Positions 38,985 through 55,526 of a stretch of 64,000 nucleotides of DNA are shown here, one piece after another. The notes beneath the pieces are model-generated. The model was not told the origin of the DNA. It was given only the letters and a program-made list of their open reading frames with translations, and ran no database searches. The stretch is taken from NCBI GenBank assembly GCA_009659925.1, contig PUXW01000008.1, forward strand, positions 3,398 to 67,397. The letters are read 5' to 3'. Position 1 is the first letter of the stretch; each line of letters begins with the position of its first letter. The DNA comes from Nitratiruptor sp. GTDB lineage: Bacteria; Campylobacterota; Campylobacteria; Campylobacterales; Nitratiruptoraceae. Both the position numbers and the translations under genes were made by a program.

Positions 38985-39631
38985 TCGCCTTGGCCGTCCA
39001 AAAGGCCCTCCCCCACTTCCACCTCGATATCGAGCTCACCATTCCCCGCCACAGCTTCCTTGGGATCATGGGGCCAAGTGGGAGTGGCAAGAGTACCCTC
39101 TTGCGGATCGTTGCTGGTTTAGAGCGGGCCCAGGGGCGTATCGAAGTGGATGGGACCATCTGGCTCGATCCAAAGACTTTCCTCCCTCCCCAGAAGCGTT
39201 CCATCGGCTTTGTAGTCCAGGAGTACGCCCTCTTTCCCAATCTCACGGTTCTCGGAAATCTGCTCTATGTTGAGAAGAACCCCTCCCTTGCCCGTCACCT
39301 GTTGGAGGTGGTAGAACTTTGGAAGCTCCGGGATAGCTATCCCAAGGCCCTTAGTGGAGGGCAACGCCAGCGGGTCGCTTTGGCAAGAGCCCTCATGCGC
39401 CGCCCCAAACTCCTGTTGCTGGATGAGCCTCTGGCTGCCCTCGATCCGAGAATGCGCCTCAAGCTCCAAGGGGAGATCCGTCGCCTCCACGAAGAGTTTG
39501 GGACCACCACCATCATGGTTAGCCACGACCTGGCCGAGCTCCAGCGGCTGTGTGACAGGATCGTCACCATCGACCAGGGCCGCATCGTCCAGGGGGGGAG
39601 CCTCCCCTTTCGACTCGCCGCTTTACGCTAG
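38981..39631 (+). CDS. modC: ABC transporter ATP-binding protein (short ModC-like, no TOBE domain)
   Basis: Walker A 'GPSGSGKST', signature 'LSGGQRQR' and Walker B 'LLLLDEP'. It overlaps modB. Confidence 0.75.
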   Translation: MIALAVQKALPHFHLDIELTIPRHSFLGIMGPSGSGKSTLLRIVAGLERAQGRIEVDGTIWLDPKTFLPPQKRSIGFVVQEYALFPNLTVLGNLLYVEKNPSLARHLLEVVELWKLRDSYPKALSGGQRQRVALARALMRRPKLLLLDEPLAALDPRMRLKLQGEIRRLHEEFGTTTIMVSHDLAELQRLCDRIVTIDQGRIVQGGSLPFRLAALR

Positions 39632-40845
39632 GCTCCCAGGTTGGTGATGATTTCGTAAATTGGCATCAAGACCCCAGCCGCTACAAGTCCCAGAATGGCT
39701 CCCAGGATCACCTGCAAGGCCGGTTCAATCATGGTGGTCAGCCGTTCCAAGGTGTTGCGGATCTCCTCTTCATAGACCTCAATGGCTCGCTGGAGGGATT
39801 CATCCAACTTTCCCGTACTCTCGCCGATGAGGACCGTTCGCAAGACCAGCTTGGAGAAGAGGCCGCTTTGCTCGAAGGCTTCGGAAAGGGAGTAGCCGTT
39901 GTTGATGGAGCGGTAGATCTCCTCGAAGCGCTCTCGGATGTAGCTGTTGGGTTCGAGCTCCTTGTAGATGAGCTCGAGGCCCTTGACCAGGGAGGAGCCG
40001 GTGCGGTACATGTCCCGAATGGTCTTGAGGTTTTCGGTAATGCGGCTCAAGAAGATGAGGCGTCCGAAGATGGGCAGGCGGAGGATATATTTGTCGTAGA
40101 GGTAGCGGAACTCCTCCCGCCACAAGACCAAAATTTTGATGGCAAAAAGGGTTCCAAGGAGGATGGCAAAGAAGTAGACGAAGATGATCTTGTGGTTGGT
40201 TACATAGATGAGGATCTGGGTGGGCAGGGGCATGGAGGGGAGTTTTAGGGAGTTGAAGACCGTCAGGATCTTGGGAAGGACCCAAAAGAGCATGACCGAA
40301 ATGGTGACGCTCATGACCAGGACAACGATGATCGGGTAGGTGAGGGCCTTCTTGATGGAGGCCCGCAATTTCAAGAGCCAGCGCAGATAGTTGGCGTACT
40401 CGATGAGGGTGGGACCAAGCATCCCCGTCATCTCGCTCACCTCGGTCATAGCCACCAGGTTGCGGGGGAAGTCCCGGTACTTCTTGATGGCGTTGCTAAA
40501 GCTCGTTCCATTCTCCAGGTCCTGGACGATCTTTTTCAAGAGGTAGCGCATCTTCGCCGAAGAGGCGTGCTCGGTGAAGTCCTCGATGGCCTGGATGATA
40601 TCGATCCCGATCTCCAGGGATTTGCCTACATGAAAACAGAAATCCTCCAGCTCCCGGAGCCCCACCTTTTGAAAGCGCAGAGAGAGGCCTTGGAACTTTC
40701 CCTTGGGGCGGATATCGAGGAGGACCAGGTTGGTCCGGTATCGGAGGATCTCGTTGATGATCTCATCCTCGCTTCGGGCCTCAATCTCGTCGAAATCGAT
40801 CTCGCCACTGCGGGTGTCGTAATACTTGACGATGAAGGTGGCCAT
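39628..40845 (-). CDS. type II secretion / type IV pilus platform protein (GspF/PilC family)
   Basis: Two T2SSF-like repeats and three TMs; 405 aa. Its stop overlaps the modC stop as CTAG, and its start overlaps the upstream stop as TAATG. Confidence 0.9.
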   Translation of the reverse strand: MATFIVKYYDTRSGEIDFDEIEARSEDEIINEILRYRTNLVLLDIRPKGKFQGLSLRFQKVGLRELEDFCFHVGKSLEIGIDIIQAIEDFTEHASSAKMRYLLKKIVQDLENGTSFSNAIKKYRDFPRNLVAMTEVSEMTGMLGPTLIEYANYLRWLLKLRASIKKALTYPIIVVLVMSVTISVMLFWVLPKILTVFNSLKLPSMPLPTQILIYVTNHKIIFVYFFAILLGTLFAIKILVLWREEFRYLYDKYILRLPIFGRLIFLSRITENLKTIRDMYRTGSSLVKGLELIYKELEPNSYIRERFEEIYRSINNGYSLSEAFEQSGLFSKLVLRTVLIGESTGKLDESLQRAIEVYEEEIRNTLERLTTMIEPALQVILGAILGLVAAGVLMPIYEIITNLGA

Positions 40846-42524
40846 TAGTGGAGCCCCTTATTGGTTCTCAAGACCCGGACCAGCTCTTCGACGGTGGTCA
40901 GTTTGGAGAGCACTTTCTCGACTGCATCCTTGTACATTGGCTTCATTCCCCGCTGGATCGCTTTTTTGCGTAGGTCAATGGCCGAAATGGAGCGTAGATT
41001 GACGATATCGTTTTGCAACTCCTGGTCGGGGATGAAGATCTCCCCGACGACCACCCGTCCCTTGTAGCCTGTGAAGTTGCACTCCAGACACCCTTTCCCC
41101 TTGGCCAGGATGATGGACTCGGTCGAATCGAGTCCGAGGATCTCCTTCTCCTCCTCATTGGCCTCATACTCATACTGGCAGACCGGACAGATGCGGCGCA
41201 AGAGGCGCTGGCCGATGATTCCAAGGAGTGCCGGTCCCAAGGAGGCGGTTTCGACTCCCATGTTGGCCAGACGGTAAGGGGCATCGGTAGAGATGTTGCT
41301 GTGGAGGGTGGAGAGGACCAGGTGGCCGGTCTCTGCCGCCTTGATGGCGATGTCGGCGGTGGTCAGGTCCCGAATCTCTCCGATGAGGATGATGTCCGGA
41401 TCTTGGCGCAAAATGGAGCGCAAAGCCTTTTCGAAGGTGAGCCCGGCCCGCTCGTTCACGGCGATCTGGCGGATGAGGTCCCACTTGATCTCTGGGGGAT
41501 CCTCGATGGTGATGATACACTTTTTGAGGGAGAAGACATGCTCGAGCATGGCGTAAAGGGTCGTGGTCTTCCCGCTTCCTGTAGGACCGGTGGCCAGGAT
41601 GATCCCATAGGGCTGTTTGGCGACTGCTGAGAGCTTTTGGAGTTCTTTGGGGGAGTAGCCGAGATTGGAGAGGACTGGAAGCTCCCCGCCGATGTTGAGA
41701 AGTCGCATGACGGCGATCTCCCCGAAAACGGCTGGGGAGGTGGCCAGACGGACATCGATCTCCCGCTTGCCATACTTGATGGTGAAGTGGCCATCGAGGG
41801 GCATGCGGGATTCGGAGATATCGAGGTTGGCCATGATCTTGAGTCGGACGATGATGGAGCTGTGGATCTTCTTGGGAAGGACGAGGCGCACCCGCAAGAT
41901 TCCATCGATACGAAACTTAACCCGGGTTACGTTCTTGCCCGTTTCGATATGGACGTCGCTGGCGTTCTCCTCGATAGCTTTGTAGAGGATGTGGTTGACC
42001 AGGTCGATAATGGAGCGGTCCTCCCCCACATTGATGTTGCGATCGATCCGTTTGAGGATGTCGTTGACGATCTGGTCGATGTTGTACCTGGCCCCGTAGA
42101 AGCGTTTGAAAAGCTCTTCGTAATCGCTCTCCCCGACCTTGACGATCTCGATCTTGTAGTTGCCGTAGTACTTACGGACGATGGGCAAGATCTCGGGCAA
42201 AGAGACGCTCTTGTAGGAAGCGATGTAGAGGGTATCGTCTTCGATGCGCAAGGGGATGATGGAGAAGCGGAGGGCATACTCCTTAGGGAGCTTTTTGGCT
42301 ACCTCCTCGTCGGCCTCCTGCTGGTCCCCATCCTCTTCTTCTCCCATCTGTTTGGCCAGAGCCTTGAGGAGGATGTTCTCCGAGACGAATCCCAGGCGCA
42401 AGAGGACCTCGCCCAACATCTCTCCCGTATGCTGTTGCTCCTTGAGGGCGAGCTCTAGGAGTTCGTCGGTGATGGCTCCTTCCTCTTTGAGGAGCTCTCC
42501 AAGCTTTTTCGGTGGTGTTGCCAT
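40845..42524 (-). CDS. GspE/PilB-family assembly ATPase
   Basis: N-terminal T2SSE_N-like 'LGELLKEEGAITDELLELALKEQ', Walker A 'GPTGSGKTTT', 'LRQDPD', and the tetracysteine 'CPVC...CLEC'. Confidence 0.9.
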   Translation of the reverse strand: MATPPKKLGELLKEEGAITDELLELALKEQQHTGEMLGEVLLRLGFVSENILLKALAKQMGEEEDGDQQEADEEVAKKLPKEYALRFSIIPLRIEDDTLYIASYKSVSLPEILPIVRKYYGNYKIEIVKVGESDYEELFKRFYGARYNIDQIVNDILKRIDRNINVGEDRSIIDLVNHILYKAIEENASDVHIETGKNVTRVKFRIDGILRVRLVLPKKIHSSIIVRLKIMANLDISESRMPLDGHFTIKYGKREIDVRLATSPAVFGEIAVMRLLNIGGELPVLSNLGYSPKELQKLSAVAKQPYGIILATGPTGSGKTTTLYAMLEHVFSLKKCIITIEDPPEIKWDLIRQIAVNERAGLTFEKALRSILRQDPDIILIGEIRDLTTADIAIKAAETGHLVLSTLHSNISTDAPYRLANMGVETASLGPALLGIIGQRLLRRICPVCQYEYEANEEEKEILGLDSTESIILAKGKGCLECNFTGYKGRVVVGEIFIPDQELQNDIVNLRSISAIDLRKKAIQRGMKPMYKDAVEKVLSKLTTVEELVRVLRTNKGLH

Positions 42525-43126
42525 TAGAGTACCTTTGCCCGTTCTAGCCGTTTTCTATCTTTGGAGGTGATGAGGGGGAAGAGAAAGGTCCCCTTCAAGA
42601 TTCCCCGTTCCAACACGAAACGCTCCGGATCCTCGATGGAGTAGATGGTCGCCTCCTTCAAAGCGATGAGGAAGCGGTAGAGGTCCAGCTTCGAGGGGGC
42701 CTTGACGAGGAGGGCGATCCGGGCCAGAGAGGAAGGGGCCTTCTTGCTTCGCCTCTTTTTCCCCTTGCTCTCCGGCTCTTTCGCTTGGGCCAGGACCACC
42801 TGGACTCCGTTGCGCTTGGCCTCCTGGAAGAGGAAGCTGTAAATTTCCCGCTGGTTTTCAAAGAGCCGCTTGCCCGCTAGGAGCTGGCGCATCTTCTCGA
42901 TCCCCTTTTGCTCCCGTTTGAGGCTCTCGCGCAGTTGGGTGAGATCCTGCCGTTTGCGCTCAAACTCTTGCTGGAGGTTCTCATACTCCTCTTGGAGTTT
43001 GATGTGGGAGTTGACGAAGTAGACCATCAAGGCGATCTCGGCTCCCAGGAGGAAGAGGAGGGTGAGGAAGATGAGAAAGTACTTCTTCTCCAGCTCCATT
43101 GCAAAGGTGCCACTTTTAAGTAGCAT
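42524..43126 (-). CDS. bitopic PilO/GspM-like assembly protein (putative)
   Basis: N-terminal TM 'YFLIFLTLLFLLGAEIALMVYF', a coiled coil 'KLQEEYENLQQEFERKRQDLTQLRESL' and a ~90-aa periplasmic alpha/beta region. Assignment is by architecture and position only. Confidence 0.45.
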   Translation of the reverse strand: MLLKSGTFAMELEKKYFLIFLTLLFLLGAEIALMVYFVNSHIKLQEEYENLQQEFERKRQDLTQLRESLKREQKGIEKMRQLLAGKRLFENQREIYSFLFQEAKRNGVQVVLAQAKEPESKGKKRRSKKAPSSLARIALLVKAPSKLDLYRFLIALKEATIYSIEDPERFVLERGILKGTFLFPLITSKDRKRLERAKVL

Positions 43127-44462: not shown

Positions 44463-46064
44463 CTACAAGTTGCAGTTGAGCTCCCCATCCTTTTCCAGGA
44501 GGCAACGGCCATCGTTCTTCCCTTCCATCGAAGCCTTGATGATATCGTTGAGCAGATAGTGGTCCTCCCCTTCACACTTGGCCTTGTTGAAGAGGATGAA
44601 GGGGTTCGTAAAGAGGTCGATGCGCACCAGCTTCCCTCCAGAGCGCTGGATGGTGTGGCACCCCCTATCGTCTAGGTAGGAGACATCCTCTCCCAAGATG
44701 AGTTCCAACGTCGTAAAGCCGTTATCCTTGGGGCCATCACTGGAGAGGAGGAGGATTCGATCCTGGTTGCGATCCCCCTGGGTCCAGAGTTTGGCCAGGG
44801 TCGTGATGGGGTCCCGTTCATTCTCGCAATCGTCCAAGGAGTTGTAAAAGGCGATTTCGTCCACCTGGGCATCGATGGAATAGACGATACTCGGGTACTC
44901 GCTCAAGTCGGTGCACTCCAGCTCTCCATCCTCGTCGACCACATGGCCAGCGATGGAAGAGGCGATCATGACGACGATCTTCTCCCCAGGTTCGACGCCT
45001 TCAGCTCCGATTCCAACCCCTTGATCGTAGGCCCCCACCAGTTCGGGAAGGCGGATGGGATCTCCGTTGCAATCAGACTGGGTGAAGAACTTGACGCTAT
45101 CCCTGGTCTCCTTGTCGATTCCGAAGAAGAGGCCAGCCTCCTCCTCATACCCGAAGTCCTTCCAGTTGTAGCACTGCCACTCCTTCCCGTCGAAGAGTTT
45201 GACCGAGCTCTCTTGGACCTTCTGGACGAAGAGGAAGAAGCGTTGGGGATAGGAGAGGGAGCTGCACAGCCCCTGGAGGAGGCGCTGGATCGTCAGCTCC
45301 CCTACGATATCGCTATAACCGCTACACCCCTCTCCCTCGACCCTCACTTTGGCGGCGGCATACTCCTTGTTCCCCCCTTTGTTCTTACCACTGACTCCCG
45401 GACACTCCCCTTGGGAGATGAAAAGGGCTGCCACACTATACCCTGTGCCCGGGGTGATGAGCTCATCATCCTTGGTATCTCCCTTGTCGGTGACGATGGG
45501 GAGGTAGTAGCTGGAGTTGATCTCGGGAGTGCTATTGATGGTGGTCTTGTTGCTCAAAAAGGCGACCAGAGGGCAGAGGCGTTGGAGGGAGCCCTTTTGG
45601 GCTAGCTCGAAGTTGACATCGTAGCGGATAGGTTTCTGGAAGCCATCTTCCTTGCGCTCTCCCAATGTAGCGTAGGGAAGGAGGTAGGGGGGAATGTTCT
45701 GCCCCCTGGCAAAGTCGATATCGCCGCAGCGGTCATTGCGTAAGGGGGTGTGGGTGGTGTAGTAGTACTTGGCCAGGCAAGCCCCCTCTTCCAGATCGAC
45801 CTCTCCATCTCCATCGATGTCGCATCCCTCCTCCTTCTTGCAGCGATCCTCATACCCATCGCAGTCGATGTCTGGGCATGGGAGGGCTCCGTTGGTCATG
45901 GCGTAGGTGATCGCCGAATCTTGGAGCTTTTGCAAGTAGAGTTTGGTGCCCCGATAGCGTTCTCCCTGGGAGACCTTGCCAAAGGAGGTAACCCCCATGG
46001 CGATGAGGAAGGAGACGATGATGAGGACGATTGCCATCTCAACTAGAGTGAATCCCCGTCTCAT
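44463..46064 (-). CDS. giant prepilin-type (class III signal peptide) protein, 533 aa, Cys/Asp-rich
   Basis: 'MRRG|FTLVEMAIVLIIVSFLIAMG' has Gly-1, Phe+1 and Glu+5. I count 18 Cys. It carries the Cys-flanked 'CDIDGDGEVD' loop. Confidence 0.75.
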   Translation of the reverse strand: MRRGFTLVEMAIVLIIVSFLIAMGVTSFGKVSQGERYRGTKLYLQKLQDSAITYAMTNGALPCPDIDCDGYEDRCKKEEGCDIDGDGEVDLEEGACLAKYYYTTHTPLRNDRCGDIDFARGQNIPPYLLPYATLGERKEDGFQKPIRYDVNFELAQKGSLQRLCPLVAFLSNKTTINSTPEINSSYYLPIVTDKGDTKDDELITPGTGYSVAALFISQGECPGVSGKNKGGNKEYAAAKVRVEGEGCSGYSDIVGELTIQRLLQGLCSSLSYPQRFFLFVQKVQESSVKLFDGKEWQCYNWKDFGYEEEAGLFFGIDKETRDSVKFFTQSDCNGDPIRLPELVGAYDQGVGIGAEGVEPGEKIVVMIASSIAGHVVDEDGELECTDLSEYPSIVYSIDAQVDEIAFYNSLDDCENERDPITTLAKLWTQGDRNQDRILLLSSDGPKDNGFTTLELILGEDVSYLDDRGCHTIQRSGGKLVRIDLFTNPFILFNKAKCEGEDHYLLNDIIKASMEGKNDGRCLLEKDGELNCNL

Positions 46065-46801
46065 AGCTCTTTACTCCTGAAAAGATAGCTTGCAATGGCC
46101 AGAATGGCACCGATATAGATGAGGCTATAGAGAGCCAGCTGCCAGAGGCTCACACTCCCTTCGACCCCATAGACCACCAAGGCCGAGAGGTCGTAGAAGT
46201 CGTAGCTGGGGAAGAGGGTGTAGAAAAAGCGGGCCAGGGCCTCGACGACTGGACTCTCGCTGGCCATCTTGGCGAATTCGTAGGTACTGTGGGCGAGAAA
46301 GTAGAACATGAAGGTAAGCAGGACCGCCACTCCGGCAGAAGTGTAGATGCCAAAGAGGAGGGCGGCTGCAAGGGTGGTCAGTTGCTCCAGATAGAGGGCC
46401 AGGAAGTAGGCTAGAAGAGAGAGAGGCTTTTGGATGAAGATGAGGGAGAGCAGGAAGGCGATGAGGACCAGGATTCCCACCACAATCCCATAGCCCCCAT
46501 ACTTACCTGCGATGAAGGCCACAGGGTGAATAGGCTTGGAGCGATAGATGAGGGCCATATTCCCAGCCATTTCGTAGGAGACCTTCATGGGGACGAAGAA
46601 GATGACGCTGAAGCTGATGAGGTAGTAGAAGAGGGCGAGGAGGTTGATGGCAAAAGAGATATCGATCCACTTGGTGCTGAAGTTGGCGAAGTAGTAGGCA
46701 AAGGCGACGACGAAGAGGTAGAAGGCGAGTAAAACCGCGATGAAGCGATCCCGCAACCCCTCTTTCAAGGTGAAGCGGGCGATGATACTACTTTTGCGCA
46801 T
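46061..46801 (-). CDS. ABC-2-type transporter permease
   Basis: Start set at MRKSSIIARF (AAGGAG SD 7 nt upstream). About 6 TMs and no recognisable soluble domain. ATGA overlap with the downstream prepilin gene. Confidence 0.65.
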   Translation of the reverse strand: MRKSSIIARFTLKEGLRDRFIAVLLAFYLFVVAFAYYFANFSTKWIDISFAINLLALFYYLISFSVIFFVPMKVSYEMAGNMALIYRSKPIHPVAFIAGKYGGYGIVVGILVLIAFLLSLIFIQKPLSLLAYFLALYLEQLTTLAAALLFGIYTSAGVAVLLTFMFYFLAHSTYEFAKMASESPVVEALARFFYTLFPSYDFYDLSALVVYGVEGSVSLWQLALYSLIYIGAILAIASYLFRSKEL

Positions 46802-47453
46802 TTTCAAGCTCCTTGATGGTCTTTTCGAGCCAGCGCCGCTCGGCTGGATCGTCGCTGTGGCGCAGGAGGGCCTTGAAGAGGGCGATGGCCTTCTCATCCT
46901 CGTTCAACTTGGAGAGGAGGATGGGGTAGGTCTCCCGGGCAGTCATGGCCGCTTCGGGATTGTCATAGATCGCCTTGGCGTAGGGTTGGGCTCCGGCTAG
47001 ATTCTCGAGGCGAAATTGCCACCAGTAGCCCATGACCATCATCAATTTCCAATCCCGTTTGGCCAGATCGAAGTGTTCGTGCATGAGTTGATCCACCTTG
47101 TAGAAGTTGCTCCAATCCCCCTCCTCTTTGCCATACATGTACTGGTAGGCTACGATTTCGAGGGGGTTAATGTTGTAAGGATCGAGGGCGAGGGAAGCTC
47201 TGGCCACAGGCTCCCACTGGTCGCTCAGGAGCAGGTAGACCCGATTGGTAATACTCAGGCTATCGAGGAAACGGGCCATAAAGAGCTTGCGGTCAAAGCT
47301 CAAGATCTCGCTCATGGCCTGGGAGGGAATCAGGAAGGTGTTGATGTATTCCCGGCGCTGGAAGTAGCGCTTGAAGGCCTCTTGGTCGAAGAGATCGGGG
47401 AAGAGGGAGAGTTTCGCCGCCACGAGGGCGGCGAAGAGGATGAGCCAGCGCAT
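46788..47453 (-). CDS. exported helical-repeat protein, function unknown
   Basis: Signal-peptide-like 'MRWLILFAALVAAKLSLF'; Trp/Tyr-rich and helical (TPR-like?). The AAGGAG SD overlaps the upstream stop. Confidence 0.45.
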   Translation of the reverse strand: MRWLILFAALVAAKLSLFPDLFDQEAFKRYFQRREYINTFLIPSQAMSEILSFDRKLFMARFLDSLSITNRVYLLLSDQWEPVARASLALDPYNINPLEIVAYQYMYGKEEGDWSNFYKVDQLMHEHFDLAKRDWKLMMVMGYWWQFRLENLAGAQPYAKAIYDNPEAAMTARETYPILLSKLNEDEKAIALFKALLRHSDDPAERRWLEKTIKELENAQK

Positions 47454-47462
47454 TGAGACTCC

Positions 47463-48362
47463 TTACCAGATCTTGTAGGCGATGAAGTTGCGGTTGCGGC
47501 TGTTCCAATCGTAGCCGAGTTTGCCGTTGTCTTCTGGCCGCTTGTCTCCATCGCTATCACTCAGCTCACTATTGAGCTGGTAGTACTTCTCATTCTTGGC
47601 GTCATAGCGCAAAGCGGTGCGCAGGGTATCGCAATGCCAACATGTACGCCCATCGACCTTGGTGTCGAGTTCGGCCACCTTGGCATCGGCTGGACCGCTG
47701 CGCACGTAGCTGGGCTGGTAGTAGGTGAAGGTGTCGCTACAATCTCCATCTCCGTTGAGATCGCAAAGCCCATCGCTACAATCGTCATCACACTGATCGT
47801 CTTCGCTCTCTTCCTCCCGGCTATCCTCTTTGACCTGGATCCGTTTGTTCTCGTAGTTGGCAAGGACCACAGCGGTGAAGGGGCCGGCTCCAAAGTCGAT
47901 GGAATCGGCTACATCTCCCCCATTCCAGACCGTTCCAGGATCGAAATAGTAGAGGGTTCGCCACCAATCCCCTCCATCGCTCTTGTCGGTGCGCACATAC
48001 CCTGCCGAGGAGAAGAACCATGGAGTCTCGATGATGCGCAAATCCTCGTCGTCCAAAAGCCCGTCAAACTTGAGGGAGTATCTGGCACCTCCACTCTCCC
48101 AGAACTGGATGACTCCATCCCGAGGGGTATAGATTGGCCGCCCAGCCTCCTGGGAGATCTTGGAGGCTCGCCCATCATAGGGGAGCATGCCCCGCTTGTT
48201 GTAGTAGGTCCCAATGGCCGCAGCGATCTTCTTGAACTTCTGGGCCTCCTTTTGCATCTGAGCCGACTTGATCAGCTCAGTTCCCTTGATCCCCATGGCG
48301 ATCAGAAAGCCGATGATGACCAGCACGATCGCCAACTCCACCAGTGTGAAACCGCGACGCAT
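47463..48362 (-). CDS. prepilin-type (class III signal peptide) protein, 299 aa, with acidic Cys-knot
   Basis: 'MRRG|FTLVELAIVLVIIGFLIAMG'. The strongest SD in the operon (AAGGAGG). 'DDQCDDDCSDGLCDLNGDGDCSD' lies at 47733-47822. Confidence 0.8.
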   Translation of the reverse strand: MRRGFTLVELAIVLVIIGFLIAMGIKGTELIKSAQMQKEAQKFKKIAAAIGTYYNKRGMLPYDGRASKISQEAGRPIYTPRDGVIQFWESGGARYSLKFDGLLDDEDLRIIETPWFFSSAGYVRTDKSDGGDWWRTLYYFDPGTVWNGGDVADSIDFGAGPFTAVVLANYENKRIQVKEDSREEESEDDQCDDDCSDGLCDLNGDGDCSDTFTYYQPSYVRSGPADAKVAELDTKVDGRTCWHCDTLRTALRYDAKNEKYYQLNSELSDSDGDKRPEDNGKLGYDWNSRNRNFIAYKIW

Positions 48363-48416: not shown

Positions 48417-50327
48417 CTAGAAGTATTTTACCCGCAGCAGGAGGATGAGATAGCTCTTGATCTTGGAGAGCTTCTTTTGGCGGAAGAGGTGTTTGAGGAT
48501 GGGGATTTCTGAGAGGATGGGCATTCCCTGGATCGAGTCGTCGTCGATTTCAGAGGAGATCCCTCCAAGGACGAGGACCTCTCCCTCTTTGAGTTTGGCG
48601 ATGGCGTTGAGCTGCTTCGTCTCGATAGTCAAGGGGACGGGGCGGGTTTGGAAGCGGGAGGGATCGGCAATGATCATACTGGCCAACTGCTCTTCGAGCT
48701 CTGCGGCACTCTTGCCCTGGAGCTTCTGGAGGATGGGGATGATGTTGAGGAGGACTTCCTGGCTCTCTTCGTTGTAACGGGGGAGGACATAGAGGGTGAG
48801 GCCCTCGGAGATAATGGGCATCTTCTGGACATTGACCGAGCTGACCGTATTGCTGACATTCTGGGTGGTGGTGCTCTCATACTCGACCTTGTTGTAGATG
48901 AGGATGCGATCATTGCCCACTTTGATCACGGCTGGTTGGTTGTTGAGGGTTGTGATTCGGGGGGAGGAGATGACCCGGGTGTAGCCCTGGGCGGAGAGGG
49001 CGGCGAGGAAAGCTTGGAAATCGGCGCCCCGGAAGGTGAGTTCCACCATCCCCGTATCGGGGGCAAGCCGCTGCTCCAGTTTGACCACCCCATCGCTTCC
49101 AAGGAGCTTCACATCGTCGATGAGCCGTTTCCAGTTGACCCCCATGGTAAAGTCTTTGTTGTTGATGAACTCGACAATCTGCAAATCGACCATGATCTCC
49201 CTGTTGAGAATCTTGTTGAGGGCCTGGATGTACTCGTCGATTTTGGCGATAGTCTTGGGGCGGCCCCGGACGACGATGAGACCGCTGATGCGATCGACCT
49301 GGACGAAGGGGCGGTACTGGAGGGAGCGGTTGATGGTGGTGCGTTCGGTGGAGCTGACCACCTCCTGGCTCTGGCGCTGGGTATTTTTGGAATAGTTGCG
49401 CATGAGGGAGGCGATGGAGGAGAGCTCCTTGCTCCTAGCCGACATCTCCCCTCGCTGCTGGGTACTCTGGGCGACCCGGCTCTCGCTCTTTTTAGGGATG
49501 AGCTTGTTCAAATCCACCTCTTTGGAGGCCTTCTTCAAGGGATTGCCCTCTTGCTTTTGAAAGCCCTGCCCCCAGCGTCCCCCGCTGCTCTCTCCAAAGC
49601 TATCGGCCTCGCTCTGGGCACGTTGCTCCTGGCTCTGGCGATCTTGCTGGTCCTTGTCCTCCTGGCTCGTAGCCTTGGCCCTATTTCTAGATGCGGTCTT
49701 GGAGAAGGCGACCTGGATGGAGGTTTGCTCCTCATCGGCGATGATGCGCTCTAGGGTCGTGCGCACCTGTTCCCAAATGTCGATGCGCAACTGGTTGTTG
49801 ATGATCAGTTGGGCCTCTCCCGATTGGGTGCTGTCCCCAGCGGCCGAGGCCGAGGCGACCATCGAGTTGACGCTGCGCATCGAGGCGGGGACGAAGAGCT
49901 TGAGGATGGCGGTCTTGTAGGTGACGATCTTCACTCCCTTATCCGGAGTGACCTCGTAGCTAAATCCATGCTGTTCACACAAGGCGTCGAGGGCCTCCTT
50001 GAGGGTGGCATCCACCAGGAAGAGGTCTACATTGAGCTCTACATCCCGATCGAGGTAGATGTTGGTTTTGGTCAAGTAGGTTAAGGTCTTGAGGGCCTCC
50101 TTGAAGGGGACCTGGTGTAAGTTGACACTCACCCGCTTGAGCAAGAAGGGCGGGATCGGTTTGGAGAGGGGCTTTGGCTCCTGGGGTGGGGCTGCTTTGG
50201 AGTGCTCCTCGTAGGCCTTATAGCGATCCAGGGCCGCTTGGAATCGAGCCTTTCGCTGGGCCTCCTCCTGGGATGGGGTACACCCTGAAAGGAGGAGCAA
50301 GAGGAGAAGGGGTAGAAGGACCCTCAT
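48417..50327 (-). CDS. secretin (GspD/PilQ family), lipoprotein form
   Basis: Lipobox 'LLLLSGC', an N0-like 'VSVNLHQVPFKEALKTL...' domain, and a C-terminal secretin domain 'ISSPRITTLNNQPAVIKVG...GMPILSEIPILKHLF'. Confidence 0.9.
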   Translation of the reverse strand: MRVLLPLLLLLLLSGCTPSQEEAQRKARFQAALDRYKAYEEHSKAAPPQEPKPLSKPIPPFLLKRVSVNLHQVPFKEALKTLTYLTKTNIYLDRDVELNVDLFLVDATLKEALDALCEQHGFSYEVTPDKGVKIVTYKTAILKLFVPASMRSVNSMVASASAAGDSTQSGEAQLIINNQLRIDIWEQVRTTLERIIADEEQTSIQVAFSKTASRNRAKATSQEDKDQQDRQSQEQRAQSEADSFGESSGGRWGQGFQKQEGNPLKKASKEVDLNKLIPKKSESRVAQSTQQRGEMSARSKELSSIASLMRNYSKNTQRQSQEVVSSTERTTINRSLQYRPFVQVDRISGLIVVRGRPKTIAKIDEYIQALNKILNREIMVDLQIVEFINNKDFTMGVNWKRLIDDVKLLGSDGVVKLEQRLAPDTGMVELTFRGADFQAFLAALSAQGYTRVISSPRITTLNNQPAVIKVGNDRILIYNKVEYESTTTQNVSNTVSSVNVQKMPIISEGLTLYVLPRYNEESQEVLLNIIPILQKLQGKSAAELEEQLASMIIADPSRFQTRPVPLTIETKQLNAIAKLKEGEVLVLGGISSEIDDDSIQGMPILSEIPILKHLFRQKKLSKIKSYLILLLRVKYF

Positions 50328-51019
50328 TGGATGGCCTTCATAAAGGCTTCCTCCAGATTCGATGTGCCATAGCGCTCTTGCAGCTCTTCGGGGGTTCCCT
50401 GATCGATGATGCGTCCCTGGTGGATGATGACCACCTCTTGGGCTAGCTCCTCTACATCTGAAAGGATGTGGCTAGCGAAGAGGATCCCTCGTTTTCCACG
50501 AAGTTCAAAAAAGATCTCCTTCAAGGCCCGTCTGGCTAGGGGATCGAGGCCACTCATGGGCTCATCCAGGATCATCCACGGGGTATCGCACAAGATGGTG
50601 GCGATGAGGGCGAGCTTTTGGCGCATCCCCTTGGAATAGCCTTTGATCTGGCGATCGAGGCCGTCAAAATCGAGGAGTTTGGCCAACTCCTGGAGCCGCC
50701 CTTCGTCTAGTTCCCGATCGGCCAGGGCGACGATGAACTCCACATACTCGATCCCCTTGAGGTAGAGGGGAGGCTCCACCACTTCAGGGAGGTAGCTGAT
50801 GGACCATTTGGCCTCGATAGAGCGGGAATCCTTCCCGTCGATGCGGATCTCCCCCTCAAAGGAGTTGATGGCCGATACCAGACACTTGAGGAGGGTACTC
50901 TTACCCGCCCCGTTGGCGCCGATGATGGCGAAGGTGGTGTTGGATGGGACCTGGAAGGTGATGTCGAAGATTCCTTTTCCGTTCTTGTAGACCTTGGAAA
51001 CGTGGTCGAACTCTATCAT
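50324..51019 (-). CDS. ABC transporter ATP-binding protein (ABC-2 subfamily type)
   Basis: Walker A 'GANGAGKST', signature 'YSKGMRQK' and Walker B 'WMILDEP'. Start set at MIEFDHV. ATGA overlaps at both ends. Confidence 0.9.
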   Translation of the reverse strand: MIEFDHVSKVYKNGKGIFDITFQVPSNTTFAIIGANGAGKSTLLKCLVSAINSFEGEIRIDGKDSRSIEAKWSISYLPEVVEPPLYLKGIEYVEFIVALADRELDEGRLQELAKLLDFDGLDRQIKGYSKGMRQKLALIATILCDTPWMILDEPMSGLDPLARRALKEIFFELRGKRGILFASHILSDVEELAQEVVIIHQGRIIDQGTPEELQERYGTSNLEEAFMKAIQ

Positions 51020-51537
51020 CGCTTCCCTACCTTGAAAGAGTAATGGCGTTTTCCACATCGCATCTGAACCTGCAAGAGGGTGATGGTCTCGATCAAACAC
51101 CCCTTGTAGCGGTCACGCTCTTGCAAAAGCTCCCCTTGGGCTGTGAGGACCGCCCTCTTTCCATCTTCCCCGATGAAGGCGGCGATAAAGTGGATCTCCT
51201 TGGCTGGGGGTGGGGGAGAGGGGATGGAGTGGCTCCAGGAGCCCTTGGAGCTGGGAGGGGCCTTGGACGAGGAGCTCGCGGTGTTGGAGGTGGATGTAGA
51301 AGAGGCCCGTTTGGTGGAGAACTGGCTGGTAAGTTCGCGGATGGAGGGGAGGGATTGGGAGCTGGTGGAGCCATTCTCCTCGGGGCATCGAAGGGTCCCG
51401 TTGAGATCGGAGATATTGCTCTCCTCGATGATCATCGCGTCGATGGAGGAGAGGGTACTCTGGAGCCGCTCCCACTTTCCAGCCCACAATGCCAAGGCGA
51501 TTCCCAGGATGAGCCAGAATTTACGGAGCATACTCAA
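51016..51537 (-). CDS. signal-anchored protein with S/T/P linker and PilP/GspC-HR-like C-terminal domain (putative)
   Basis: TTG start 8 nt after AAGGAGG. TM 'FWLILGIALALWAG', a Ser/Thr/Pro-rich linker, and C-terminal 'IHFIAAFIGEDGKRAVLTAQGELLQERDRYKGCLIETITLLQVQM'. Confidence 0.35.
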   Translation of the reverse strand: MSMLRKFWLILGIALALWAGKWERLQSTLSSIDAMIIEESNISDLNGTLRCPEENGSTSSQSLPSIRELTSQFSTKRASSTSTSNTASSSSKAPPSSKGSWSHSIPSPPPPAKEIHFIAAFIGEDGKRAVLTAQGELLQERDRYKGCLIETITLLQVQMRCGKRHYSFKVGKR

Positions 51538-54268
51538 GGATCACCCCTCCTTCCCAGCGGATAGGACATGTGGTCTGGGGGGCCGCTTCGACCCGCAAAA
51601 CCACGACCCCGTCACATCCGGTATAATCGTCCACCAGACTCAAGCGGCACTTGTCGGTCACCTTGGGATCGTCGACGACGAAGCCGGTGACCCGTACATT
51701 CTTGACCCGGATCTCGGGATCGTCGGTTGCGACAATCTTGAAACGCAAGAAACAGACCCGTACCCCTTTCCCTTCGGCGTTGTCGCAGACTTGATTTTCG
51801 GTCTTGACTCCCGTTCCCCAGAGGGTTTTGAGCCTCGTGGCACCGACGCGCACCTGGTCGTAGGAGTTGGCGTAAAGGAAGACGGTCTTGGCCAACATGT
51901 AGGGGGGATAGACCAGTTTGGCGGTGGTGATGCCCCCTTTGCCGATGGTGTAGGTTTGATCTTCATGGTCGAAGGTGAGGGTGGCGGTGTTCTTGGAGCA
52001 GATATCGACCCGTTTCTCGTTTCCTACCACGTAGGTCAAGCCTCCAACTGGCGCCCCTTCGTAGCGCTTATAGAGACGGAGCCGATTCTCATCGAGGACC
52101 TCGACGATATCCCATCCTCCCAGGTAGAGGTTGTCCCCGCGATCTTCGTCAGCCAGCACGACTAGACGATCCAGATGGGGGGTGACATTGAGGAAGTCGT
52201 AACCTGGGGCCTCGTTGGTGAAGAGGGTGCCCTCTTCGGGGGTGTAGGCAATAGCTCCCCCTTGGCGGACATAGAGGTGGCGGCCGGTGGAGCTCTTCTT
52301 CACTCCGGCGATGGCTCCGAAGAAGATCTTGCTCCCCTCCTTGGCCGGGTTGCCATACTTGTCACTGGCGAGGATGGTGTAGACATCTTCGAAGATGGTC
52401 AAAACATCGTCATAGCGGCTTCCAGCCAGGGAGATAGAGATGGTATGGACCGGCCCCGAGACGATGGTGATGGGGATGTTCTGGACGAAGCGCTCTTGGC
52501 CATCCTCCTTGCTCAAGAGGACCTCTACTTCCAAGATGTCGACTCCCGAGTGAAAGAGGGTGTAAAAGTCGATCTCCACCGGATTGGAGCGGATCTCGTC
52601 GATCCTCTTTTCAAAGAGCTCCCTCTCCCGATCGAAGCTGATGAGGTGGTTCAAGGAGCGGATGCGAATGGAGCGAATCGCCTGGGCTGGGGCAAATTTA
52701 GCCTCATTGTCCCGGTAGACCACCCCGAGCATGAGGCTTCCGTAGGAGTCGACCTCGACATTGTCACTCTGATTGTAGGTGATGACCTTGTAGAAGTGCT
52801 CCTCGCTGGTACGCAAGAGCTTCAAGTGGAGGGTGGCGATGGCCTCTTGGGCAGTGAAATCGACATCGAGCTCGATCTCCTCTTGGGGAAGGCCCGTTGG
52901 AGCCCGGTAGATCAGCCGTTTGTGGCCATGTTCGTCAGTGGTGAAGCGGTTGCCAATGAGATTACCGCTCTCGTCGTAGAAGTAGCCCAGCTGGGTTCGG
53001 CTCTCCTCGTCGATGAGGGCACTCACCTCCACCTCGGCGGAGATGTAGCGGTTGGCCCCATCGAGGGTGTAGAGATCGACGATGGCACTCTCCCCCTCCC
53101 GCAAGGTCAAGGATTCGCTGCTCAACACGATCTTGCTCACTCTGGTGATCTGGGGGAAGATGATGCGAATCTGTTTGGAAACCCCCTCGCTGGTGATGGT
53201 GAAGGTATAGATCTTGCCTGCCAGGTCGGCCAGCCGATTGGGGGCGGTGTAGGTGAAGGTGGCCCGTCCCTGTTGATCGGTGTACAAGACGGTGGAGCTC
53301 ACACTTCCATAGAGCTCCCCTTGTTCGTCTACGAGGATCGGGATCTCGACCTTGGCCGGGACGGGGCGGTTATGGCGGTCGAGGGTGAGGACTTCGATGG
53401 TGTAGCTGACCCCTGGCTCTTGGACCCGGATGATGGAGGGATCGACCACCAATTTGGCCACTGGAAGGCGCTCTTTGGCAACCACCTCCACCGGCTGCTT
53501 CTTGCCAACACGCAAGAAGACCCCTCGCTCCTTGAGGATGAAGGCTAGATCGATGGAGGTGCGCCCGGCCCCGACCCCCCGTACCGCTAGGCTACCGATG
53601 GAGCCGTTGAGATCAAGGGGAATGACCTGGGCGATATGGGGGGCTTGGGAGCGGGCCTGGACCTGGAGAATGCGTTGGGGATCGACGGGCTCGCCGGTGG
53701 AGCTTTCGATGAAGCGATAGAGGAGGATTGTCTCCTCGCCGGCTTCAATGGTGCCATTTCCATCCTTGAAGGAGAGTTCGATCTCATAGGCTTGAAGCTG
53801 CTGGGCGATGTCGATAGGTGCTCGAAGGAGGCTTTGGAGTTGGCGACGCTCCTGAAGGCGGTTTCCATCTTCGAAGATAGTCTCCACCACATACTCAGCT
53901 CGAAAGGCGAGGCTTTGGAGATTGTAGCAGGGACTTTGGAAGGTGATCTCGAAGTTGAGGAGGGATCGGTTGGTAATGTCGATCGGCTCCCTATTGCGCT
54001 TTCCCTCGATGAGGGCCTCTTGGATGAAACAGCCGTTTGTGAGTGCTTGAGGGGTGAAGGAGAAGGAGCGGATATACAAGTGGCGCTGTACCCCTTCCAA
54101 AGTCGGCTCAAGTTCGATCTGGAGCGGGACACTCCCGACGACCCGGAGAGGATCGACCATCTGGAAGCGCCCATCGCTTCCGACTTCGACTTTGGAAGAG
54201 GAACTCCCACATCCGCTAATGAAAAGGGAGAGTAGGAAGAGTGTAAGTAGGTGGAAGAGTCGTTGCAA
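51521..54268 (-). CDS. large lipoprotein with repeated Ig-like (invasin/Big_1-like) modules
   Basis: The TTG at 54268, with a GAAGGA SD, gives '(M)QRLFHLLTLFLLSLFISGC' with a lipobox. Repeated 'V..D..G......YTD..G.A.F.Y.AP' type modules follow. The track's ATG at 54370 adds 34 featureless residues. Confidence 0.6.
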   Translation of the reverse strand: MQRLFHLLTLFLLSLFISGCGSSSSKVEVGSDGRFQMVDPLRVVGSVPLQIELEPTLEGVQRHLYIRSFSFTPQALTNGCFIQEALIEGKRNREPIDITNRSLLNFEITFQSPCYNLQSLAFRAEYVVETIFEDGNRLQERRQLQSLLRAPIDIAQQLQAYEIELSFKDGNGTIEAGEETILLYRFIESSTGEPVDPQRILQVQARSQAPHIAQVIPLDLNGSIGSLAVRGVGAGRTSIDLAFILKERGVFLRVGKKQPVEVVAKERLPVAKLVVDPSIIRVQEPGVSYTIEVLTLDRHNRPVPAKVEIPILVDEQGELYGSVSSTVLYTDQQGRATFTYTAPNRLADLAGKIYTFTITSEGVSKQIRIIFPQITRVSKIVLSSESLTLREGESAIVDLYTLDGANRYISAEVEVSALIDEESRTQLGYFYDESGNLIGNRFTTDEHGHKRLIYRAPTGLPQEEIELDVDFTAQEAIATLHLKLLRTSEEHFYKVITYNQSDNVEVDSYGSLMLGVVYRDNEAKFAPAQAIRSIRIRSLNHLISFDRERELFEKRIDEIRSNPVEIDFYTLFHSGVDILEVEVLLSKEDGQERFVQNIPITIVSGPVHTISISLAGSRYDDVLTIFEDVYTILASDKYGNPAKEGSKIFFGAIAGVKKSSTGRHLYVRQGGAIAYTPEEGTLFTNEAPGYDFLNVTPHLDRLVVLADEDRGDNLYLGGWDIVEVLDENRLRLYKRYEGAPVGGLTYVVGNEKRVDICSKNTATLTFDHEDQTYTIGKGGITTAKLVYPPYMLAKTVFLYANSYDQVRVGATRLKTLWGTGVKTENQVCDNAEGKGVRVCFLRFKIVATDDPEIRVKNVRVTGFVVDDPKVTDKCRLSLVDDYTGCDGVVVLRVEAAPQTTCPIRWEGGVILEYAP

Positions 54269-54358
54269 TTTCCATCCTTCGCTTCTATTGGAAGTGGAGC
54301 TGTGCTTGGTTAGTGTAGCAGAGGTGAAGTAAAAGTTCCTTTGAGGGAGCGAGCAAGT

Positions 54359-54400
54359 GGGAAAAGTCAAGGGGAAATTAAGGGGATTCGGGAATTTCGG
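54359..54400 (-). repeat. four phased AWTTCCC(C) direct repeats in the operon leader
   Basis: The minus strand reads 'aaATTCCCgAATCCCCttaATTTCCCCttgacTTTTCCC'. The plus-strand G-runs start at about 54359, 54371, 54382 and 54390. Confidence 0.4.
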
Positions 54401-54423: not shown

Positions 54424-54451
54424 ATTATAGCAAAAGTGAAGACCAAGTCAA
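54424..54451 (-). promoter_or_regulatory. near-consensus sigma70-type promoter (TTGACT-16 nt-TATAAT) for the 12-gene operon
   Basis: The minus strand reads 'ccTTGACTtggtcttcacttttgcTATAATaatt'. It lies between tRNA-Asn and the first operon gene, about 155 nt upstream of the TTG start. Confidence 0.4.
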
Positions 54452-54583: not shown

Positions 54584-54589
54584 ATTATA
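54584..54589 (-). promoter_or_regulatory. candidate -10 (TATAAT) for tRNA-Asn
   Basis: The minus strand reads 'tttgccTATAATtctac', about 22 nt upstream of the mature tRNA 5' end. Confidence 0.35.
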
Positions 54590-54608
54590 GGCAAATTTAT
54601 CCTCCCTG

Positions 54609-55526
54609 TCAAGAGCTCTTGGCCCGATAGAAGGAGATCTTTCCCCTTTGCTCGAGCCAGACTCTCCCCTGATTCACAAGCTCTTGGAGGAGGTTGCGGG
54701 TCTCGGGTGCCAGGAGGATATGGACATCCTCTTGGCTTAAAGGGCGGTGGGCTAGGAGGTGGAGGAGCTCTTGGGATGTGAGGGTGATGGGAGAAGCGGT
54801 TTGATCGGTGTGGCGGGTCAAGATGGCTAGGGGGAGGTTGTGGATGGAGCGGGAGAGCTCAAAGAGGCGCTGGTAGGTGACGGGAGCGACCCGGTAAGCT
54901 GGGGGACGATCGATGGTCCCAATGTCGACGCGATCGGGGCGGATGCGCTGGAGGGCCTCGTTGAGGGCTCGAAACTCCGACTCCTTGTCGTTGATGCCCT
55001 GGACGACGAGAATCTCGATGATGAGCATGCCTCGATACTCCTGGCGAAAGCGCTCCATTCCTTGGATGATGGATTGGATCTTTATACCCTTCATGGGGCG
55101 ATCGAGCCTTTGAAAGCAGCGCTGGGTAGCGCAATCGAGGGAGAGTTTGACCATGTCGAGTTTGGCCAGGCTAGCCCGGAGGGAGGGATTGATGATCCGG
55201 GAGGCGTTGGAGAGGATGAGGAGCTGGCTCTTCCCCTTGATCTGGTGGAGCCCCTCGATGAGTTGGTCGAGGTAGGGATAGAGAGTTGGCTCCCCATTGG
55301 CGGTGATGGTGAGGACGTCGAGGTCGCGAAAGCGGGCAAGCTGTTGGCGAACCTCGTGGAGGATGGGTTCTGGCGGAGGTGGATCGGGAATCTTTCCCGT
55401 CGGTTTTGCCGGTGCAAGCTCGCAGTAGAGGCAGTCGAAGGTACACGACTTGGTCCCAGGGGAGAGATCGATCCCGAGGGAGCGTCCGAACCGCCGGGAG
55501 TTGATGGGGCCGAAGGTGTACCTCAT
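54609..55526 (-). CDS. radical SAM domain protein
   Basis: '[17 protein letters not shown]' followed by the CxxxCxxC motif 'CTFDCLYC'; 305 aa; 4-nt overlap with hemE. Confidence 0.8.

Follow-up and report, generated by a model that had tools for sequence, protein, structure and literature searches.

A 64,000-nucleotide stretch of DNA (hereafter the window) from a metagenome-assembled genome (MAG) labelled Nitratiruptor sp. (assembly GCA_009659925.1, contig PUXW01000008.1) contains, at 44463..46064 on the minus strand, an ATG-started open reading frame (ORF) for a protein of 533 amino acids (aa) that begins as a prepilin and ends in 263 residues without recognisable relatives. The question raised by this locus is what such a protein does in a filament system and where in the filament it would be placed. 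An earlier note, made from the sequence alone, had described a prepilin-type protein with 18 cysteines and a dense Cys/Asp block, and had proposed a calcium- and disulfide-stabilised tip or adhesin subunit. The description was exact in its residue counts and block position, and the two prepilin family models, PF07963 and TIGR02532, were matched above their cut-offs. On balance, we consider it probable that the 533-aa protein is a modular type IV pilin, of low abundance and probably tip-located, in a divergent filament machine related to the mannose-sensitive haemagglutinin (MSH) pilus and to the secretion system of type II (T2SS). The features added here to the earlier description are a GspG/PulG-like core, a Cys/Asp knot at the position of the alpha-beta loop, and a 299-aa partner prepilin with Cys-clamped loops of its own.

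A pilin core with a long C-terminal extension

The gene product is deposited at NCBI as MRI83341.1, from the Nitratiruptor-labelled MAG, and as NPA82893.1, both labelled 'hypothetical protein' and matching P0001 at 100%. A ribosome-binding site, AGGAG, lies 9 nucleotides (nt) 5' of the ATG, and this start codon shares bases with the stop of the membrane-protein gene upstream (ATGA), an arrangement that points to translational coupling of the two; a further 6 nt separate the stop codon from the start of the following gene. By virtue of these three features, the gene is embedded in an operon. As judged by sequence conservation, the gene is real, because full-length orthologues exist at 33–58% identity. 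An antisense ORF at 44943-45605 (+) was dismissed as a by-product of the GC-rich coding sequence. The G+C content is 52–59% along all 64 kb of the window, and cultured Nitratiruptor genomes are near 40%; given this composition, the genus label of the source MAG may be imprecise.

The N-terminus has the complete layout of a class III signal peptide, namely a short basic leader ending in glycine, phenylalanine at +1, glutamate at +5 and ~20 hydrophobic residues. This region, MRRG followed by FTLVEMAIVLIIVSFLIAMG, scored 21.7 bits against PF07963 (N_methyl; curated cut-off 21.2) and 22.0 bits against TIGR02532 (curated cut-off 16.3). Glu9 of the preprotein corresponds to the +5 glutamate of the mature protein and lies within helix alpha1; this glutamate (Glu5) and a complete alpha1 are kept in the orthologues.

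An AlphaFold model was built on a 51-sequence alignment and reached a predicted local distance difference test (pLDDT) score of 89.8 and a predicted template modelling score of 0.87, compared with an unusable earlier run on six close orthologues (pLDDT 41.6). In pilins, a globular alpha/beta domain comes after an alpha1 of ~53 residues; the model predicts this arrangement, which supports the prepilin reading of the earlier note. The helix at residues 7–58 leads into a coil-rich segment (residues 60–100), which holds the Cys/Asp block and was nonetheless modelled with pLDDT values of 93–97, and then into a loop of lower confidence at residues 105–125. The alpha/beta core reaches to approximately residue 270 and contains predicted beta strands at 147–150, 190–192, 208–217, 234–236 and 253–258.

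Several lines of sequence comparison connect this core with the T2SS major pilin. Its motifs are PPYLLPYATLG, D140-x-F-x-x-P-x-R-Y-D-V, LPIVT and GYSVAALFISQGECPGVSGKN..EY, the second of which is equivalent to the 'DPWG..Y' motif of GspG. The 533-aa protein matched P0008–P0021 over residues 125–269 with E-values of 1e-11 to 5e-25, and the family profile matched P0158 with E=2e-28; P0158 in turn matched PulG (5wda_A) with E=4.4e-6 over 115 residues, DPWG..YQ included. In the alignment of P0158 with PulG, the Cys/Asp segment falls where the alpha-beta loop of PulG lies. All 19 of the 19 short relatives matched the GspG model TIGR01710 below threshold, and the 533-aa protein itself scored 20.6 bits over residues 3–63 only (cut-off 88.85), which places it outside GspG proper. 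The pilin core is thus homologous to PulG/GspG transitively, through intermediates such as P0158. Searches of PDB by sequence and profile, whether started from the family as a whole, from the C-terminal half or from the short relatives, matched alpha1 only, the P0158–PulG pair excepted.

The C-terminal extension was modelled as three beta-rich units of ~85 aa each (~275–360, 362–447 and 452–533), every one with a conserved cysteine pair (298/332, 384/413 and 469/497, respectively), followed by a terminal pair at 521/531. The appended 263 residues in three predicted beta units give the protein the build of a modular pilin, that is, a pilin module with further modules attached. The other mark of that class, a recognisable non-pilus domain, was not found in residues 271–533 by Pfam, PDB sequence or profile searches, or Foldseek, and no known adhesin or lectin domain was matched in Pfam, PDB profiles or Foldseek against PDB and BFVD. 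An internal repeat test returned no significant similarity among the three units (z=1.4–4.0), and the idea that they are repeats draws on predicted secondary structure and cysteine spacing. The pilin module and knot are 47–73% identical to those of the orthologues, compared with 17–56% for the C-terminal units. Integrin binding of the RGD type was rejected, as the protein has no RGD.

The 533-aa family is very rare, with ~7 full-length relatives, all metagenomic. A word-indexed search of 5.8 billion proteins returned six matches, including the window protein itself, two from Campylobacterota MAGs (54–58% identity) and three from unlabelled metagenomes (36–38%). In an exhaustive HMMER search of 1.84 billion cluster representatives, no more than three full-length ones passed E<1e-30, the query among them, and the sole addition was P0007, at 33% identity. 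Among 185,579 GTDB species genomes, one true relative was found (locus L001), and the other 27 loci share the N-terminal helix only.

A wider family surrounds this small group. The exhaustive search uncovered a match in two stretches (residues 1–75 and 125–269) to ~15 prepilins of 240–380 aa, and the profile search brought in ~30 more, of 210–480 aa. They are recognised by the motifs 'LPCPD-x-x-x-DG-x-E-D/N' and 'LP-x-x-TLG...D-x-W...Y-x-V', to which the closer members add 'GY-x-VAA-x-x-IS-x-GE...GKN...REYE...DD-x-V-x-EL', and their globular part is covered by no Pfam or NCBIfam model. The first acidic loop of the 533-aa protein is a hallmark of this "LPCPD..DG.ED" prepilin family, distant members of which lack its third aspartate. 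Short relatives of 220–380 aa end near residue 270–330 of the 533-aa protein, and one of them, P0170, lies within a comparable secretin-TPR-MshE-GspF cluster. In that cluster, the gene preceding the 244-aa family member (L031, 8610-10004) encodes a 465-aa protein with an 'LPCPD' motif of its own and a non-canonical, pilin-like hydrophobic N-terminus without Glu5, which may be a GspK-like partner there. Another member, P0182 (372 aa; L032, 10001-11979, also in L033), is accompanied by a second prepilin gene in a region resembling a prophage or integrative element, with Prim-Pol, Cro/CI-like repressors, Bro-N, a DNA methylase and an integrase, far from pilus machinery.

An N-glycosylation sequon, E-I-N-S-S/T, occurs at residues 181–185 of the 533-aa protein (window 45510-45524, minus strand); it is of the D/E-x-N-x-S/T type used by the PglB of Campylobacterota, and is kept in the three closest orthologues and missing from more distant ones.

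Cysteines, acidic loops and calcium

The 18 cysteines are at residues 63, 68, 75, 81, 96, 113, 164, 221, 247, 267, 298, 332, 384, 413, 469, 497, 521 and 531. In five sequences, comprising the window protein and four orthologues, all 18 occupy the same alignment columns, and the losses seen elsewhere tend to come in pairs. P0006 has 16 cysteines, 521 and 531 both being gone, and P0007 lacks the pairs 68/75, 96/113, 221/247 and 521/531 while keeping 63 and 81; its total is odd (13), as further cysteines occur in it alone and the one in the 384 column is missing. Closer members of the wider family have both C164 and C267, and short members have neither, except P0157, with a cysteine in the 164 column only. 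This pairwise loss suggests nine disulfides in the 533-aa protein, with 63-81, 68-75, 96-113, 164-267, 221-247, 298-332, 384-413, 469-497 and 521-531 as the likely pairs, and it bears out the disulfide-stabilised reading of the earlier note at the level of sequence conservation. The crowding of six cysteines into 51 residues is by itself not significant (P=0.17; 200,000 composition-preserving shuffles of the protein). Haem binding was rejected, as the protein has no CxxCH motif.

Two DxDxDG motifs, starting at residues 65 and 82, lie within the knot that contains the first five of these cysteines. In the same shuffles, at least one such motif arose with P=0.031 and at least two with P=0.0006. 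Both loops fit the pattern D-x-[DNS]-x-[DNS]-G, and position 9 is acidic in each. The earlier note had named non-conservation of the Asp-rich loops as grounds for abandoning its proposal, and the loops proved conserved: in the six closest sequences D65, D69, G70, E72, D73, D82, D84, D86 and G87 are invariant, and the consensus sequences are P-D-[ILV]-[DTN]-C-D-G-x-E-D for loop 1 and C-D-[ILF]-D-x-D-G-[ES]-x-[DE] for loop 2. Expressed as loop positions, those invariant in six orthologues are 1, 5 and 6 in loop 1 and 1, 3, 5 and 6 in loop 2. Across all 51 aligned sequences, G70 is invariant and D65 nearly so. Loop 2 lies in an insertion at residues ~76–122 that is peculiar to the ~530-aa subfamily.

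The stretches 'CDIDGDGEVD' and 'PDIDCDGYED' share the D-x-D-x-D-G-x-x-D pattern with the calcium loops of thrombospondin type 3 (TSP3) repeats, dockerins, FG-GAP propellers and EF-hands, and in having cysteines on their flanks the loops recall TSP3 repeats. A profile of the block found its best PDB matches in genuine Ca2+ loops, namely FG-GAP ACDIDGDGREEI, the dockerin sequences 'DLDGDGEVDV' and 'DLNCDGVID', and EF-hands, at non-significant E-values of 0.17–6. Relative to these known loops, all matches of the 533-aa protein were non-significant (E>=0.11), the glutamate at position 12 is not conserved, and a cysteine at loop position 4 is unusual. The motifs make Ca2+ binding plausible, above all at loop 2 and, inside the ~530-aa subfamily, at loop 1. 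A further segment, ISQGECPGVSGKNKGGNKEY, would by its position correspond to the C-terminal beta2-beta3 calcium site of GspG.

The operon and its assembly machinery

As the earlier note had it, the prepilin lies within a type IV filament gene cluster, with secretin, ATPase and platform genes alongside. The entire cluster is on the minus strand and forms one operon-like run from the gene of a 949-aa lipoprotein to that of the GspF/PilC platform (Table 1). Its order is kept in L001 and in the distant loci L029/L030, where the cluster goes on with AAA_22 and TPR genes recalling MshM and MshN. The promoter-like site with full consensus ahead of the lipoprotein gene is suggestive only, since the total number of such sites in the scan was not above shuffle expectation.

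Table 1. Coordinates in the window of the features of the 533-aa prepilin and of its gene cluster.
Feature	Position	Strand	Basis
533-aa prepilin: leader peptide MRRG ending in Gly-1	46053..46064	(-)	PF07963 and TIGR02532 matches; cleavage before Phe5 inferred
533-aa prepilin: ribosome-binding site AGGAG	46074..46078	(-)	read from sequence
533-aa prepilin: predicted alpha1 helix, residues 7-58 (~52 residues), hydrophobic alpha1-N	45891..46046	(-)	AlphaFold; profile matches alpha1 of type IV pilins and PulG
533-aa prepilin: Cys/Asp knot, residues 63-96, CPDIDCDGYEDRCKKEEGCDIDGDGEVDLEEGAC	45777..45878	(-)	Cys 63, 68, 75, 81, 96; model pLDDT 93-97
533-aa prepilin: loop 1, D65-I-D-C-D-G-Y-E-D73	45846-45872	(-)	sequence
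533-aa prepilin: loop 2, D82-I-D-G-D-G-E-V-D90	45795-45821	(-)	sequence
533-aa prepilin: pilin core, residues 125-270	45255..45692	(-)	stretch 125-269 matched in ~15 distant prepilins; pair C164/C267
533-aa prepilin: C-terminal extension, residues 271-533	44466..45254	(-)	AlphaFold, pLDDT ~87-96
Sigma-70-like promoter TTGACA-17-TATAAT, 12/12	54584..54612	(-)	consensus scan; likely operon promoter
Second promoter-like site, 11/12	54424-54451	(-)	consensus scan
Lipoprotein, 949 aa, lipobox LFISGC, operon head	51521..54370	(-)	translation; 62% identical orthologue at same position in L001
173-aa protein between lipoprotein and ABC ATPase genes	51016..51537	(-)	37% identical to same-position ORF of L001
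ATP-binding cassette (ABC)-type ATPase, DrrA/GldA-like	50324..51100	(-)	PF00005 3.7e-21; TIGR01188 7.4e-39; syntenic in L001, L029
Outer-membrane secretin, best match MshL	48417..50327	(-)	PF00263 9.6e-27; TIGR02519 159 bits, below 250 cut-off
299-aa partner prepilin (MRRG/FTLVE)	47463..48362	(-)	PF07963, TIGR02532; on same contigs as 533-aa family
221-aa secreted protein between the two prepilin genes	46788..47453	(-)	45-69% identity in L001, L029
Membrane protein, ~six transmembrane segments; likely true start Met33, 46801	46061..46897	(-)	hydropathy; syntenic in L001, L029
446-aa bitopic protein, one transmembrane segment	43116..44456	(-)	conserved in L001, L029
200-aa bitopic coiled-coil protein	42524..43126	(-)	topology; weak NF040576 GspM match, E=0.049
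Extension ATPase, GspE/PilB/MshE type	40845..42524	(-)	PF00437 2.3e-110; PF05157 1.3e-9; NF053729 58.9 bits
Inner-membrane platform GspF/PilC	39628..40845	(-)	PF00482 3.9e-49; TIGR02120 1.2e-58

A six-frame scan of the window found only two prepilin signatures. The second belongs to the 299-aa protein, which carries an invariant Cys-clamped element of its own, C191-D-x-D-C-x-D-G-x-C-D-x-N-x-D-G-D-C208; the loop design is therefore common to both pilins of the system. The 299-aa prepilin is the better conserved of the two: seven relatives are 51–69% identical to it and P0200, the farthest, is 32% identical, compared with 33–58% for the 533-aa protein. Its distribution is equally narrow. Its N-terminal ~60–160 residues (~20–55% of its length) resemble prepilins of ~200 aa from Chitinibacter, Deefgea, Thermosulfurimonas and Desulfurobacterium.

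The N-terminal MshEN motif of the extension ATPase, which binds cyclic di-GMP (c-di-GMP), exceeded the NF053729 cut-off of 38 bits and would imply second-messenger control of filament assembly. Measured against the MSH type, the secretin falls below the MshL cut-off, the MshE motif lies above its own, and two pilin genes stand in place of the MshA/B/C/D/O/P set. The machinery is related to the MSH and T2SS systems and fits no curated subtype, because of the sub-threshold secretin, the presence of only two pilins and the embedded ABC transporter.

The remaining components could be assigned with less assurance. The 446-aa protein had no family or PDB match in Pfam, NCBIfam or PDB profiles, and by position and topology it is conjecturally PilM/N- or GspL/MshI-like; its 200-aa neighbour is a GspM/PilO/MshJ-like candidate. 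The 173-aa protein, whose C-terminal ~55 residues are conserved and whose N-terminal part is of low complexity and rich in serine and proline, is possibly PilP/MshK-like in a pattern that also recalls GspC-HR domains. The six-transmembrane protein, without a family match in Pfam or NCBIfam, is the presumed permease partner of the ABC ATPase. For the 221-aa secreted protein, Pfam, NCBIfam and PDB gave no match and a PilG-like role is conjectural. The 949-aa lipoprotein, which had no Pfam match and no counterpart in L029, may serve the machine as cargo or as a partner at the surface.

Interspersed among the genes for the pilins and the secretin, those for the ABC ATPase, the six-transmembrane protein and the 221-aa protein resemble in their arrangement the PilG/H/I set of Myxococcus xanthus; in that species, an ABC ATPase, a membrane protein and a protein of unknown function are encoded next to type IVa pilin genes (PMC6060248), within a machinery of another type.

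Proposed place of the protein in the filament

In the published concept of modular pilins, of which PilB/PilC of Streptococcus sanguinis, CofB, TcpB and GspK are examples, the extra modules cannot be packed in the filament shaft and are presented at the tip (PMC8179133). In size and modular build, the 533-aa protein goes well beyond a typical major pilin, a point on which the earlier note was right, and a location at the tip is suggested by its size, its modular architecture and the faster divergence of its C-terminal part. A distal, exposed role of the C-terminal units would be consistent with their faster divergence and with the better conservation of the 299-aa prepilin, itself a candidate shaft subunit.

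A working scheme would run as follows. The preprotein would be inserted into the inner membrane through the hydrophobic N-terminal half of alpha1, and a prepilin peptidase encoded elsewhere would cut after Gly4 and methylate Phe5. The nine disulfides, as judged from the joint loss of cysteines, would form in the periplasm. The two DxDxDG loops, set between cysteines at the alpha-beta-loop position of the GspG-like core, would each bind one Ca2+ and thereby stiffen a surface in contact with neighbouring subunits. In line with the genes present, polymerisation of the pilins through the MshL-like secretin would fall to the c-di-GMP-responsive ATPase of the MshE type, together with the PilC/GspF platform and the membrane proteins of 446 and 200 aa. 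The 533-aa subunit would enter first and cap the filament, because its 263-residue extension does not fit into the shaft, which would be built by the 299-aa prepilin or by a pilin encoded elsewhere. The three fast-evolving beta units would then project distally as the part in contact with ligands or surfaces.

Several observations weigh against this reading. Neither a prepilin peptidase nor a retraction ATPase nor a small major pilin was found in the window. Both prepilins keep Glu5, so that neither is marked as an initiator of the GspK type, and the pilin module has short relatives that could serve as major subunits in their own clusters. Foldseek searches with the whole model matched no pilin or adhesin in PDB or BFVD: in PDB nothing reached E<=0.001, and the top matches were tandem Ig/FN3-like chains with template modelling scores <=0.13 and root mean square deviations of 12–30 Å; in BFVD, the five matches at E<=0.001 were generic beta-sandwich fibre and adhesin proteins with scores of ~0.1, none of them meaningful. 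With respect to calcium, the isolated block scored only 12.5 bits (E=0.11) against the Pfam model EF-hand_1 (cut-off 25.4), matched FG-GAP below threshold, and gave no TSP_3 match and no significant match to any calcium-binding family in Pfam. The position equivalent to the EF-hand glutamate at position 12 reads E, Y, H, K, K and Y in the orthologues. Moreover, the full-length relative P0007 has no loop 2, and many distant family members carry Pro or Val at position 3 of loop 1; for these reasons, the role of the conserved 'PD...DG.E[DN]' element may lie in structure and not in metal binding. Accordingly, the calcium proposed in the earlier note retains its motif resemblance and lacks the support of a family match, a fixed position-12 glutamate and a loop 2 shared by all full-length relatives. 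Of its tip or adhesin subunit, the tip location stands as a reading of size, architecture and divergence, and the adhesin part found no counterpart among known adhesin or lectin domains.

The main alternative, which we regard as unlikely, is that the protein caps a periplasmic endopilus of the T2SS type, as the tip of a secretion piston that touches its cargo, for example the 949-aa lipoprotein. This would suit the GspG/PulG-like pilin core, an ATPase that scored slightly higher as GspE (448.9 bits) than as PilB (438.4 bits), a platform best matched as GspF, and a cluster without a retraction ATPase. It would also suit the large, conserved lipoprotein gene that leads the operon behind a consensus promoter, and the location of the knot in the alpha-beta loop region, which governs secretion specificity in PulG/OutG (PMC13081927). 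However, the cluster has two pilin genes instead of a GspG-H-I-J-K set and no recognisable GspC, its secretin resembles MshL and not GspD (159 versus 87 bits), its ATPase bears the MshE-type c-di-GMP motif typical of surface pili, and the lipoprotein is missing from the more distant syntenic locus L029.

Highly improbable, in our view, is a thick, decorated filament in which the 533-aa protein is the major shaft subunit and carries its C-terminal units on every subunit in the manner of a bottle-brush. A 263-residue extension per subunit would create steric clashes and make passage through the secretin difficult, the gene is internal to the operon without a promoter or terminator of its own, and the 299-aa partner, more conserved and related to ~200-aa pilins, is the better candidate, even though the window holds no small major pilin, the 533-aa protein retains Glu5, and members of the pilin-module family of 220–250 aa look like principal pilins of the GspG type and can be the last pilin gene of a cluster. 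It also has to be considered that a flexible linker could allow modular pilins in the filament body (PMC8179133). Distinctly improbable, too, is that the protein is never polymerised and only borrows a class III signal peptide, being membrane-anchored or released, in the periplasm or at the surface, with loops that bind nothing or else Fe, Mn or Zn, metals in which vent fluids are rich. Such a role could account for the degenerate loop 1 of distant relatives, the lack of a recognisable adhesin fold in the C-terminal modules, and the occurrence of P0182 outside any pilus cluster in a mobile-element-like region, but it is at odds with the gene order, in which a complete assembly machinery strictly accompanies the gene at every locus examined, with the conserved Glu5 and full-length alpha1, and with the translational coupling within the operon.

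For the preferred reading, a modular and probably tip-located pilin, the closest architectural analogy is provided by CofB of enterotoxigenic Escherichia coli and TcpB of Vibrio cholerae, of the type IVb systems. There, as here, one large minor pilin (~420–520 aa) is encoded beside one other pilin, and a pilin module with retained Glu5 precedes beta-rich domains without a match in signature databases. CofB and TcpB are proposed to prime assembly and to sit at the tip (PMC8179133). They differ in that PDB searches found no sequence similarity beyond alpha1, neither is among the Foldseek PDB matches listed, and their machinery is of the type IVb kind, whereas it is MSH/T2SS-like here and the core GspG-like. 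Neither a set of nine disulfides nor a Cys/Asp knot is known from CofB or TcpB. PilB/PilC of S. sanguinis follow the same design, with C-terminal modules grafted on a pilin module and presumably presented at the tip (Raynaud et al. 2021, PMC8179133). Their modules are recognisable as vWA and lectin domains, whereas those of the 533-aa protein match nothing, and the 533-aa system is that of a diderm with a secretin and has an extra insertion inside the pilin module.

GspG/PulG, with a core that is homologous through intermediates, the 'D-x-W/F-x-x-x-Y' strand included, are only ~140 aa long, so that the 533-aa protein is four times larger; its putative calcium loops lie in the alpha-beta loop instead of the C-terminal beta2-beta3 loop, and it is rich in disulfides, which GspG typically lacks. 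Calcium stabilises the major pilins of the T2SS and is a hallmark of GspG, and type IVa (T4a) pilins use disulfides instead (PMC13081927); the 533-aa protein, from its sequence, appears to use both. The comparison with PilY1 in the earlier note held as a functional likeness only. In Pseudomonas aeruginosa, this pilus-tip-associated protein has nine-residue, Asp-rich, EF-hand-like loops that control pilus function (PMC3248442), but it is not a pilin, has a beta-propeller and shows no homology to the 533-aa protein. Membership in the PilY1 family was rejected, as Pfam and NCBIfam revealed no PilY1-type domain and the protein has a pilin N-terminus.

A more far-reaching proposal, which we consider rather improbable, is that the operon represents an undescribed type IV filament subtype of a few Campylobacterota-like lineages of hot vents, with two giant pilins with Cys-clamped loops, an ABC transporter and a c-di-GMP-gated ATPase. 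The knot would then be a metal- or redox-sensing switch, or a site for minerals or metal sulfides, and would couple assembly or adhesion to the chemistry of the vent.

The acquisition of new functions by simple filaments has been ascribed to modular pilins, and the few that have been characterised are mostly from pathogens. The 533-aa protein would be an extreme case, with nine likely disulfides, two putative calcium loops and three orphan beta modules in a streamlined two-pilin machine of thermophilic vent bacteria, and it would combine the disulfide strategy of T4a pilins with the calcium strategy of T2SS pilins, which are normally separate. The family is undescribed and very rare; it is a variation on the known modular-pilin theme that overturns no principle, and its value is incremental. 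If confirmed, these findings would define a new "LPCPD..DG.ED" prepilin family and provide a tractable model of thermostable filament tips.

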